Of a DNA stretch of 5,659 nt, positions 1,792-2,662 are shown in pieces (within the stretch, counting starts at the first letter, position 1; the number at the start of each line of letters is the position of its first letter). Below the pieces are notes generated by a model that saw nothing but the letters and a program-made list of their open reading frames with translations, did not search any database and was not told where the DNA came from. The DNA is from a virus (lineage: Monodnaviria; Loebvirae; Hofneiviricota; Faserviricetes; Tubulavirales), in the IMG/VR virus record IMGVR_UViG_2534681772_000009, positions 1-5,659 of that record. One strand, given 5' to 3'. The position numbers were made by a program, and so were the translations under genes.

Positions 1792-1922
1792 AATGGTAAG
1801 GATGGCAGAATCTGGCGGGAATCGTTGACACTGGCCGTCAACTGGCTACTATCGACAGTGATTCAAAATCATCCGTTTCTCCAAACGAATCAGAATCAAA
1901 TGTCTGTCAGCAGTAAGTGAAC

Positions 1923-1945
1923 GGCCTGACCTCACCAATCAGGCC
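1923..1945. repeat. GC-rich inverted repeat (7-bp stem GGCCTGA / TCAGGCC, 9-nt loop) overlapping the stop codon of ORF B
   Basis: Read directly: 1923-1929 GGCCTGA pairs with 1939-1945 TCAGGCC. No U/T tract follows on either strand, so not a canonical intrinsic terminator. Confidence 0.4.
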
Positions 1946-2180
1946 TGTTCATCCAGTTAGTTGGTAAATCTGTACCTGATACACGAGAATCAAACACCAC
2001 TTCTTCAGTGCCATCACCATGATGCCGGATAATCTGGTAACCGGATTGCGGGTTCTGGCTCTCAGCTTCATAAGCAGCCCGGAATGCTGGATCTTTGAGA
2101 AGCATCACTTTCAGCTCCTGATGTGTCATGAATTTTTCCATGATAAGCCCCGATGAATGCTGCCGCGCCGAATCAGCCAT
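1932..2180 (-). CDS. Hypothetical small protein (ORF B), 82 aa from the first ATG or 69 aa from MEKFM...; function unknown
   Basis: ORF-track 1932..2180. None of the three candidate ATG starts has a strong Shine-Dalgarno; the best is a weak GGGG upstream of the ATG at 2139-2141. No signal peptide. The N-terminal LLKDPAFRAAYEAE loosely recalls N-termini of some XRE-family antitoxin-like regulators, but no helix-turn-helix follows. Confidence 0.3.
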   Translation of the reverse strand: MADSARQHSSGLIMEKFMTHQELKVMLLKDPAFRAAYEAESQNPQSGYQIIRHHGDGTEEVVFDSRVSGTDLPTNWMNRPDW

Positions 2181-2302
2181 AACGCTGAAAATGGAAACAG
2201 TACGGCTTGGCCAACCCCGGACAGCAACAAAACAAGTTTTGTCACTGACCGGCGTTATCTTTCAAAACAGACAGTTAACGATTTTTTGTCTGGTGTTTAT
2301 GC

Positions 2303-2329
2303 GTGAAATTTCGTGCGTACGAAATTCAC
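2303..2329. repeat. Imperfect palindrome GTGAAATTTCG-TGCGTA-CGAAATTCAC spanning the stop codon of ORF A; candidate protein-binding site or RNA hairpin
   Basis: Read directly: 2303-2313 pairs with 2320-2329 with one bulged A. No T-tract on either side, so not a canonical terminator. Confidence 0.5.
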
Positions 2330-2574
2330 CACCAATAAACAAACGGACGATGACTGACCGGAAAAGCAATGCCGTCAGCATCATGACCACGCATTACCTG
2401 ATTGAGAAGCCTTCTGACTTCACGACGCTCAGGCCTGGTCATCATCATATTGCGATACCAGGACGGCGATTTATCAAACCATCTGGCACAACTGGCAAAA
2501 TGTGAACCTACACGACGATAAGACTTAAGGCGGCCACCGGGAAGTCGGTCACGCGCCTTATTTTTTACAGACAT
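2326..2574 (-). CDS. Hypothetical small basic protein (ORF A), 82 aa; function unknown
   Basis: ORF-track 2326..2574. ATG at 2572-2574 is preceded by GAGGA (complement of 2581-2585) with a 6-nt spacer, a good Shine-Dalgarno. Arg/Lys-rich, no signal peptide or transmembrane segment. It is the first gene after the secretin gene on the same strand. Confidence 0.5.
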   Translation of the reverse strand: MSVKNKARDRLPGGRLKSYRRVGSHFASCARWFDKSPSWYRNMMMTRPERREVRRLLNQVMRGHDADGIAFPVSHRPFVYWW

Positions 2575-2662
2575 AATAAATCCTCTAAGTAACTGAATAC
2601 CTAGAAGATGTCGTACTGTTCATACCCCATAAAAGTTAACGCCATAATAAAAATCCATACAA

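Follow-up and report, generated by a model that had tools for sequence, protein, structure and literature searches.

Introduction

CUS-1 and Ypfφ are filamentous prophages linked to high-virulence K1 and extraintestinal pathogenic (ExPEC) clones of Escherichia coli and to third-pandemic Yersinia pestis. Published analysis places both phages in the CTX-type class, in which single-stranded DNA (ssDNA) is integrated by XerC-first recombination. For Ypfφ, Derbise and Carniel (2014) described two terminal open reading frames (ORFs), YPO2280a and YPO2281, which together with their CUS-1 homologues are "immediately adjacent to the attR" and have "no predictable functions"; CTXφ holds ctxAB at the same position, and the terminal prophage ORFs were left as an open question on the role of the phage (PMC4266046). 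The equivalent region of UPφ was likewise compared with the ctxAB position by Shapiro and Putonti (2020; PMC7307601), and a 2025 study of Vibrio inoviruses terms such regions phage hypervariable regions (pHVRs; PMC12715192). We found no functional study of these two ORFs in the literature. Here we analyze positions 1792–2662 of a 5,659-nucleotide (nt) stretch of DNA (IMG/VR record IMGVR_UViG_2534681772_000009; hereafter the window), which form the dif-proximal (attR) end of a CUS-1/Ypfφ prophage and carry two small genes, ORF A and ORF B. We take these to be the homologues of YPO2280a and YPO2281, respectively, the numbers being assigned by gene order. A first-pass annotation, made from the sequence alone, had marked this segment as the likeliest place in the window for something undescribed. 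The two ORFs at this ctxAB-like position are in fact already known, having been printed as YPO2280a/YPO2281 and their CUS-1 homologues (PMC4266046), and observing them is not new. The literature on these genes that we consulted does not mention, however, a micro-ORF ahead of ORF A, a hairpin over the Shine–Dalgarno (SD) sequence of ORF A, the wide family to which ORF A belongs, or the independent assortment of the two genes.

Results and discussion

Sequence comparison revealed that the approximately 55 nt upstream of ORF A are conserved as strongly as the gene itself. They hold a micro-ORF that ends 26 nt before the ATG of ORF A (Table 1). This micro-ORF is present in 18 of the 19 lineages that carry ORF A and in two distant homologues, ending 23–29 nt before the ORF A start; the two distant versions encode MHYLDQDIF, from an integrative island, and MTTRFEGYGDLDIF, from a chromosome of high GC content. 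Its Tyr, Asp, Ile and Phe residues are invariant in 16 of 16 sequences, and most copies have a purine-rich, SD-like motif 5–13 nt upstream. Differences from the consensus at codon positions 1, 2 and 3 number 7, 5 and 24, respectively, outside the hairpin described below, and 0, 0 and 16 inside it. This pattern of selection on the encoded peptide suggests that the nascent peptide itself may matter. The micro-ORF has no RefSeq annotation, and we found no mention of it in the literature on these phages. The micro-ORF and its hairpin are thus the new point of this analysis and, along with the definition of the ORF A family, are worth following up.

The last codons of the micro-ORF together with its stop (AUC UUC UAG) form the 5′ arm of a 12-bp stem, read from 2609 to 2580, the 3′ arm of which is the SD sequence of ORF A. 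Over 16 sequences the pairing holds in 93.6% of cells, against 42%–56% once the 3′ partner is slid. The same layout was obtained in six independent folds, including those of the loci L011 and L038, in which the inner stems are unrelated in sequence. Given that the end and the stop of the micro-ORF base-pair with the SD sequence, translation of ORF A would depend on translation of the micro-ORF. The first-pass annotation had credited ORF A with a strong ribosome-binding site and a very basic product. The GAGGA motif 7–8 nt 5′ of the ATG is real and the isoelectric point (pI) agrees with the second statement; the binding site is masked, however, because it is paired with the end of the micro-ORF. 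We propose that the hairpin would be melted, and the SD sequence freed, by a ribosome that translates the micro-ORF or that terminates or pauses on it, such that ORF A would be translated only upon translation of the micro-ORF, that is, by translational coupling or attenuation. Judged from the predicted structure, a translational gate on ORF A of this kind is probable.

Translational control by a leader ORF is known from hok/mok coupling and from the translation attenuation of erm, cat and cmlA. The layout described here resembles those systems in that a short upstream ORF extends over the 5′ arm of an SD-sequestering hairpin, and the arrest-peptide leaders in that the peptide sequence is conserved. 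It differs from hok/mok and erm/cat/cmlA in that the micro-ORF shows no sequence similarity to their leaders, ORF A is not a hydrophobic Hok-type protein, and neither an inducer nor an antisense RNA is known. Should the gate respond to a signal, it would add a new, phage-borne case to the regulatory leader peptides.

ORF A has homologues in at least seven genera, with 59%–98% identity and a fixed length of 82 residues. The ratio of non-synonymous to synonymous substitution rates (dN/dS) is 0.08–0.26, at saturated synonymous sites. The protein is hydrophilic (grand average of hydropathy, GRAVY, of −0.85), and inspection showed no hydrophobic N-terminus or segment. An exhaustive profile search at E ≤ 1e-3 retrieved relatives from at least 149 representative clusters, many of which match residues ~31–82 only. 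They share a C-terminal signature, PxWW..TRPxRR..GxDxD..P..KPHxYYW, with which the protein ends, and all are named "hypothetical" in their source databases. Members of the family sit in inoviruses, tailed phages and integrative islands. Distant members were located between two AlpA-type helix-turn-helix (HTH) genes of an integrase/ParA island, in tailed phages (in one case directly upstream of the terminase genes) and in a three-gene chromosomal islet, L038, with no phage genes near. ORF A belongs to a broad, unnamed family that is carried on many kinds of mobile element.

Searches of Pfam, PHROGs, NCBIfam and PADLOC with both proteins and 96 relatives of ORF A yielded only two uncharacterized PHROGs. 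Profile searches of the PDB with ORF A and ORF B gave matches at chance level only, and DNA and protein searches of deposited phage genomes gave nothing useful. Structure prediction and Foldseek comparison, which the first-pass annotation had suggested, were run singly on each protein. The AlphaFold2 model of ORF A is unreliable (predicted local distance difference test, pLDDT, of 53) and predates the deep family alignment; that of ORF B is of moderate quality (pLDDT 70) and comprises two helices followed by a β-hairpin. Neither model had a match in PDB or BFVD at E ≤ 0.001, which bears out the earlier view that neither ORF can be assigned to a functional family. Two suspected likenesses, of ORF A to the arginine-rich proteins HK022 Nun and lambda N and of the ORF B N-terminus to those of XRE/HigA-type antitoxins, were dropped, as no search supported them. 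An AB-type secreted toxin in the manner of ctxAB, which the first-pass annotation had thought improbable, is not supported: neither protein has a signal peptide, the N-termini being non-hydrophobic on inspection (GRAVY −0.82 for ORF B), and Pfam and PDB searches detected no homology to ADP-ribosylating A or pentameric B subunits.

ORF B is a real gene (dN/dS 0.10–0.49, synonymous sites saturated), for which the first-pass annotation had given the frame 1932–2180. That 82-residue frame exists; its start, however, is better placed at the second ATG, position 2141, where the homologues and phrog_6642 begin, which leaves 69 residues. The match to phrog_6642 (E = 1e-53) sets in at residue 14 of the longer frame, and the homologues in Raoultella, Brenneria, Pectobacterium and Yersinia begin with M-x-K-F. 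RefSeq (WP_001298440.1) starts the protein at 2129, giving 65 residues. Over both genes, dN/dS values of 0.08–0.49 show that ORF A and ORF B are coding.

Profile hidden Markov models revealed that the two genes assort independently. Of the 19 lineages, 9 have an ORF B-like gene after ORF A, the order ORF A, ORF B, dif being invariable, and the other 10 lack one. Conversely, the IKe/UPφ-type phages L015 and L017 carry ORF B after the secretin gene without ORF A, together with the palindrome and the stem-loop listed in Table 1. The segment is therefore not the single two-ORF unit as which it had been annotated. In the inoviruses examined, ORF A always lies directly past the secretin gene and upstream of dif; the distance to a dif site is 35–2400 nt in 15 of 15 species-level loci, those lacking detectable phage genes included. 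ORF A has been kept across three unrelated Rep types (CRI/gpII, Rep_trans and Phage_GPA/P2-GPA-like) and two pVI types, and retains 59%–79% identity where Zot falls to ~42% and the secretin to 23%–49%. Furthermore, in Pantoea piersonii (L023), Brenneria (L024) and Zobellella aerophila, ORF A stands beside dif with no detectable phage genes upstream, and intact ORF A cassettes persist in this way in L023, L024 and L036. In L023 the homology to phage DNA sets in 4 nt ahead of the micro-ORF, in L024 74 nt ahead of the ORF A start.

A further element, L016 (7904–9383), extends over 1.45 kb, with an inverted dif-like pair as one boundary and a good dif as the other. It carries an ORF B homologue and two reverse-strand ORFs (155 and 85 residues) as well as the palindrome and the stem-loop. 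Since it aligns to both ends of the intact UPφ-type prophage L015, it is either a core-deleted prophage, by internal deletion, or a satellite-like mini-element of the Xer-exploiting integrative mobile (IMEX) kind. The L016–L015 homology starts at the palindrome, which is the left edge of a module common to UPφ-type phages and takes the perfect form AAATTTCGTGC/GCACGAAATTT in L015, L017 and L025. The last of these, a 9,278-nt contig of Brenneria alni, looks like a complete circular phage genome, possibly a replicative form, because its ends repeat each other, including an inverted dif-like pair (13–40/79–106 and 9051–9078/9117–9144). On this comparative evidence the segment is made up of two conserved cassettes that can be inherited separately, not of a single cargo of two genes. 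Cassette 1 comprises the micro-ORF (2645→2601) and ORF A (2574→2326), and cassette 2 the palindrome (2303–2329), the stem-loop (2213–2256) and ORF B (2141→1932).

We propose that ORF A may be a dose-sensitive accessory effector that binds nucleic acid, whether a regulator or a toxin-like protein, and that it would act apart from virion assembly and Xer recombination. ORF B would be a separate small acidic accessory protein, which may act with ORF A and need not. The anatomy of positions 1792–2662 as described is held with high confidence. The explanation as a whole, with two cassettes, a gated ORF A and an accessory effector, seems to us about evenly balanced between right and wrong, and the functional class of ORF A, read from its composition, is put forward only tentatively. 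Several observations weigh against this explanation. The term nucleic-acid-binding derives from charge and composition alone, as the ORF A model has low pLDDT and no fold or profile matched. The micro-ORF is absent from three distant members of the ORF A family, and only about seven contexts of distant members have been seen. Covariation in the SD hairpin is modest, with three double-change pairs and 38 of 500 shuffles doing equally well. The conservation of D-I-F-stop could be explained by RNA pairing alone, in which case evidence of selection on the peptide is limited to G-Y-E-Q. The coding strand showed no sigma-70-like promoter for either ORF A or ORF B. The compensatory changes counted in the stem-loop of cassette 2 all come from one lineage. 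Finally, the cassettes beside dif in loci without detectable phage genes could owe their retention to hitch-hiking on an undeletable site.

A bolder version of the proposal, which we rate as rather improbable, is that the micro-ORF and ORF A constitute an unrecognized, widely mobile cassette in which an arrest-peptide-type sensor, a conserved nascent peptide (…Y-E-Q-x-D-I-F-stop) at which the ribosome pauses or terminates, would gate a small basic effector. The latter would be either a new toxin or addiction factor, or a factor acting on ssDNA or on Xer at dif. If true, such a cassette could explain why ORF A is the last gene across dif-integrating inoviruses whose replication and coat modules are unrelated and why it survives beside dif without detectable phage genes.

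Among the alternatives to an accessory effector, an addiction-type module, with ORF A as a toxin under tight translational control and antitoxin function supplied by ORF B where present and by an RNA elsewhere, is unlikely as a whole. The two products do form a basic and acidic pair (Table 1), a micro-ORF gate recalls the hok/mok arrangement, and the order of the genes is constant in the nine lineages that hold both. The persistence of the ORF A cassette by dif and in the chromosomal islet L038, a behaviour frequent among addiction modules, points the same way, as does the occurrence of toxin–antitoxin-like genes in the same slot of L009 and L019. Against this, ~185 nt with a stem-loop separate the genes, more than half of the lineages have ORF A without ORF B and the UPφ-type phages have the reverse, no toxin or antitoxin family matched in Pfam, NCBIfam or PADLOC, and the hydrophilic ORF A does not resemble most type I toxins. 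The opposite-strand promoter-like sites (2619–2648 and 2636–2663) are directed away from the micro-ORF and, by inspection, are not conserved in Xenorhabdus. The first-pass annotation had listed a toxin–antitoxin-like pair among its candidates. A classical type II pair, whose two genes occur together, are co-transcribed and usually overlap or stand less than about 30 nt apart, is not supported: the spacer of ~185 nt with its palindrome and 19-bp stem-loop, the independent assortment and the lack of a family match in Pfam, NCBIfam, PADLOC or PDB speak against it. An addiction role for ORF A alone fits the tight gate and the survival of its cassette without phage genes.

The genes could instead serve superinfection exclusion, anti-defence or host takeover, aiding lysogen or phage without a nucleic-acid target, which we regard as unlikely to the same degree. 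The slot is a recognized accessory and hypervariable position in inoviruses, distant relatives of ORF A occur among small accessory genes in tailed phages, and Ypfφ lysogens are partly protected from superinfection (PMC4266046). That protection is, however, credited to the repressor (PMC4266046), PADLOC gave no match, and the conservation of ORF A across phages is not typical of hypervariable cargo. As to the slot itself, its identification as the ctxAB-equivalent accessory position of a dif-integrated inovirus is upheld by the exact dif, by the end of the secretin gene at 2663 and by the published account (PMC4266046). Like the ctxAB slot of CTXφ and the Vibrio pHVRs (PMC12715192), it is situated between the last morphogenesis gene and the attachment site and is a hotspot for accessory genes. 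ORF A and ORF B differ from such cargo in being conserved across genera rather than hypervariable and in lacking signal peptides and similarity to ctxAB. The closest match is to YPO2280a/YPO2281 of Ypfφ and their CUS-1 homologues (Derbise et al. 2007; Gonzalez et al. 2002; PMC4266046), with the same genes in the same order at the same place, past the secretin gene and beside the attachment site. UPφ901, a dif-integrating enterobacterial inovirus, also has two small uncharacterized ORFs, h1 and h2, after its secretin gene (PMC7307601). Neither ORF A nor ORF B shows detectable similarity to the two post-secretin ORFs of the UPφ-type phage of E. coli F11, which may correspond to h1 and h2 (profile probabilities ≤0.4%). 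In Pectobacterium parvum (L009/L010, 9504–10785), an Xre_MbcA_ParS_C antitoxin-like gene and a 312-residue gene stand between ORF A and dif, and in a metagenomic contig (L019, 1257–1940) an ORF B homologue is followed downstream by a Gp49 (HigB-like)/HTH_37 pair.

An accessory factor of Xer/dif recombination outside the DUF3653 superfamily, aiding dif integration or the stability of the integrated element, is very unlikely. XafT, which is defined by its DUF3653 domain and activates XerD catalysis through direct interaction, is likewise encoded by a small IMEX gene close to dif, and in Vibrio CTX-I inoviruses xafT is the terminal gene by the attachment site (PMC12715192). The authors of the XafT study allow for activators from other superfamilies. 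The constant position of ORF A upstream of dif, including at loci without phage genes, would suit such a role. So would the junction of the tandem copies in F11, a hybrid site (GGTGCGCATAATGTACGACTCGTTATGT) in which the XerC arm is perfect and the XerD arm degenerate (6 of 11 positions mismatched). However, XafT serves XerD-first integration at a double-stranded attP, whereas CUS-1/Ypfφ are XerC-first and use ssDNA; a factor of the XafT type has not been reported for the CTX-type, XerC-first single-strand pathway. In line with this class, inverted pairs of dif-like sites occur at the attL ends of the relatives L005, L009, L016, L025 and L035, and the literature asserts such a pair, folded from a single strand, as the attP of CUS-1. 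For CUS-1 itself we located only the first (hybrid) dif-like site, its attP lying outside the window. Furthermore, DUF3653 (PF12375) was not matched by ORF A, ORF B or the 96 relatives of ORF A in Pfam searches at E ≤ 1–10, and no E. coli-like dif was found in the loci of distant ORF A members (integrase island, tailed phages and chromosomal islet). The suggestion of a Xer accessory factor in the first-pass annotation is thus not supported for factors of the known kind.

It is highly improbable that the segment is essentially cis-acting phage DNA with incidental or non-functional ORFs. The stretch past gene IV of Ff phages carries no genes and contains the packaging signal and the origins, and conserved hairpins occur in the segment; yet the strong purifying selection on both genes at saturated synonymous sites refutes the notion of non-functional ORFs, and the constant length of ORF A across genera also speaks against it. 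The corresponding region is likewise intergenic in M13, IKe and I2-2 (PMC7307601). Hairpins as cis-acting elements are compatible with the two-cassette explanation. The question of the role of the phage is narrowed rather than answered: the attR-side ORFs are not a ctxAB-like toxin pair, not one unit and not XafT-like. ORF A is the better target of the two, and the gate on it can be tested with simple reporter constructs.

The structured noncoding DNA noted in the first-pass annotation is borne out. Folding of the phage (+) strand gave z = −2.65 for 2142–2325 and z = −2.48 for 1764–1931 (2/200 shuffles). The stem-loop between the two genes is conserved in Pectobacterium, Brenneria, Pantoea and Y. 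pestis, with 97% of cells paired. It shows three adjacent compensatory double-change pairs, the observed values being reached in 1 of 500 shuffles, and further changes of this kind occur in the UPφ-type copies. It accompanies any Rep type and is found without ORF A (L015) or without either ORF (L004); in the UPφ-type copy of F11 the conserved stem-loop lies between the two post-secretin ORFs. No T-run follows it, and Rfam had no match over 1600–2800. By analogy with the region past gene IV of Ff phages, it would most likely act in cis on the single strand, for example as a complementary-strand origin or a packaging signal, an assignment made with low confidence. A moron, an autonomous transcription unit within a phage genome, would have a promoter and a terminator of its own; here the hairpins downstream lack a T-run, and the coding strand gave no sigma-70-like promoter. 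Evidence for the long imperfect hairpin between ORF B and dif is weak, and this hairpin is not universal, since in Brenneria L024 ORF B and dif are only 58 nt apart.

Table 1. Coordinates of the features discussed, in window numbering
Feature	Position	Strand	Description
Chromosomal dif, attR side	1764..1791	-	exact 28-nt match
Long imperfect hairpin between ORF B and dif, phage (+) strand	1833..1926	-	inverted repeat I2; 18-nt arms, 72% complementary
ORF B, YPO2281 homologue	1932..2141	-	69 aa, pI 5.1; ~55-aa conserved core, variable tail
Stem-loop between ORF A and ORF B	2213..2256	-	~19 bp; inverted repeat I1 and DNA fold
Palindrome over ORF A stop codon	2303..2329		inverted repeat I4
ORF A, YPO2280a homologue	2326..2574	-	82 aa, pI 11.5, 18 Lys + Arg
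Predicted RNA hairpin	2580..2609	-	micro-ORF end (AUCUUCUAG...) pairs with ORF A Shine–Dalgarno (UUAGAGGAU)
Micro-ORF	2601..2645 (2645→2601)	-	14 codons and stop; MALTFMGYEQYDIF, then stop
pIV-type secretin gene	2663..3906	-	Pfam Secretin and phrog_1012; frameshifted in window
Morphogenesis genes	3906..5651	-	Zot/pI 3906–4931; DUF2523/pVI 4935–5219; pIII C-terminal part 5238–5651

Other features of the locus

The window comprises E. coli chromosome and, on the minus strand, the right-hand end of a filamentous prophage. The dif site matches GGTGCGCATAATGTATATTATGTTAAAT at 28 of 28 positions, a result reached in 0 of 200 shuffles; its XerC arm (1781–1791) faces the prophage and its XerD arm (1764–1774) the chromosome. 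Toward dif the minus strand reads the C-terminal part of pIII, a DUF2523 pVI-like gene, Zot/pI and the pIV-type secretin, that is, the inovirus morphogenesis genes in canonical order and near-identical to those of Ypfφ (Pfam Zot, 2e-26; Pfam DUF2523, 2.5e-20; phrog_3942). In the Y. pestis locus L022 (NCTC5923), protein identity is 99.7% for Zot, 99.8% for the secretin, 100% for ORF A and 97% for ORF B. At the DNA level, 1700–2700 is 100% identical to enterotoxigenic E. coli (ETEC) TW10590 and 99.8% identical to many ExPEC strains (F11, NU14 and avian pathogenic E. coli), and is matched in 391 of 5,426 complete E. coli genomes. The prophage is a CUS-1/Ypfφ element because its proteins are near-identical to those of the Y. 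pestis prophage and its DNA matches these E. coli genomes.

The secretin coding sequence is intact in TW10590 (1245 nt). In the window a 1-nt deletion in a T-run at 3125 (T6 to T5) cuts it into two ORFs, 2663–3091 and 3064–3906. This is one of four single-base indels relative to TW10590 (3125, 5214, 5218 and 5236), each in a homopolymer run, and the last three cluster near the start of pVI and the stop of pIII. The indels could stem from errors of long-read sequencing or mark a truly defective prophage.

Two strains hold more than one prophage copy at dif. The dif array of F11 contains three filamentous prophages, namely two 9,088-nt CUS-1 copies and a distinct UPφ/IKe-type phage (L002/L004); the published UPφ survey has only one Ypfφ/CUS co-infection, away from dif (PMC7307601). 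In TW10590, the junction of two copies (L001 19845–19915, corresponding to window 2244) lacks ORF B, attP and the variable genes, with a repeat unit of 7,332 nt. Its breakpoint lies inside the 5′ arm of the stem-loop and the loop of a hairpin 43 nt past the HTH repressor gene, at an "AC" microhomology. The junction could be an aberrant rolling-circle product that recombined back, or an assembly artefact. Rep-mediated aberrant termination at the stem-loop was considered and set aside, the junction being present in 1 of 5,426 genomes. In F11, the phage (+) strand hairpin past the HTH repressor gene (L002 ~19800–19830, outside the window) reads …GTGTTGGT/AATACTGCACG…. This resembles the f1 gene II nick site, CTTT/AATAGTGGAC, and may be the plus-strand origin.

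On the chromosomal side, two minus-strand matches to the sigma-70 promoter consensus lie over dif (1771–1808), directed outward into the chromosome. The 3′ part of an element of the IS3 insertion sequence family (1–776; transposase orfB 13–765) is inserted in a tyrosine-recombinase gene (690–1361) on the XerD side of dif. The same gene is intact in TW10590, where it is one of two neighbouring "site-specific integrase" genes. This pair edges an island that encodes ThiF/MoeB-like and MPN/Mov34 proteins, a 3′–5′ exonuclease and HTH proteins, and that stands in place of the usual dif neighbours seen in F11. In Zobellella, a gene judged by eye to be recombinase-like is apparent across dif.

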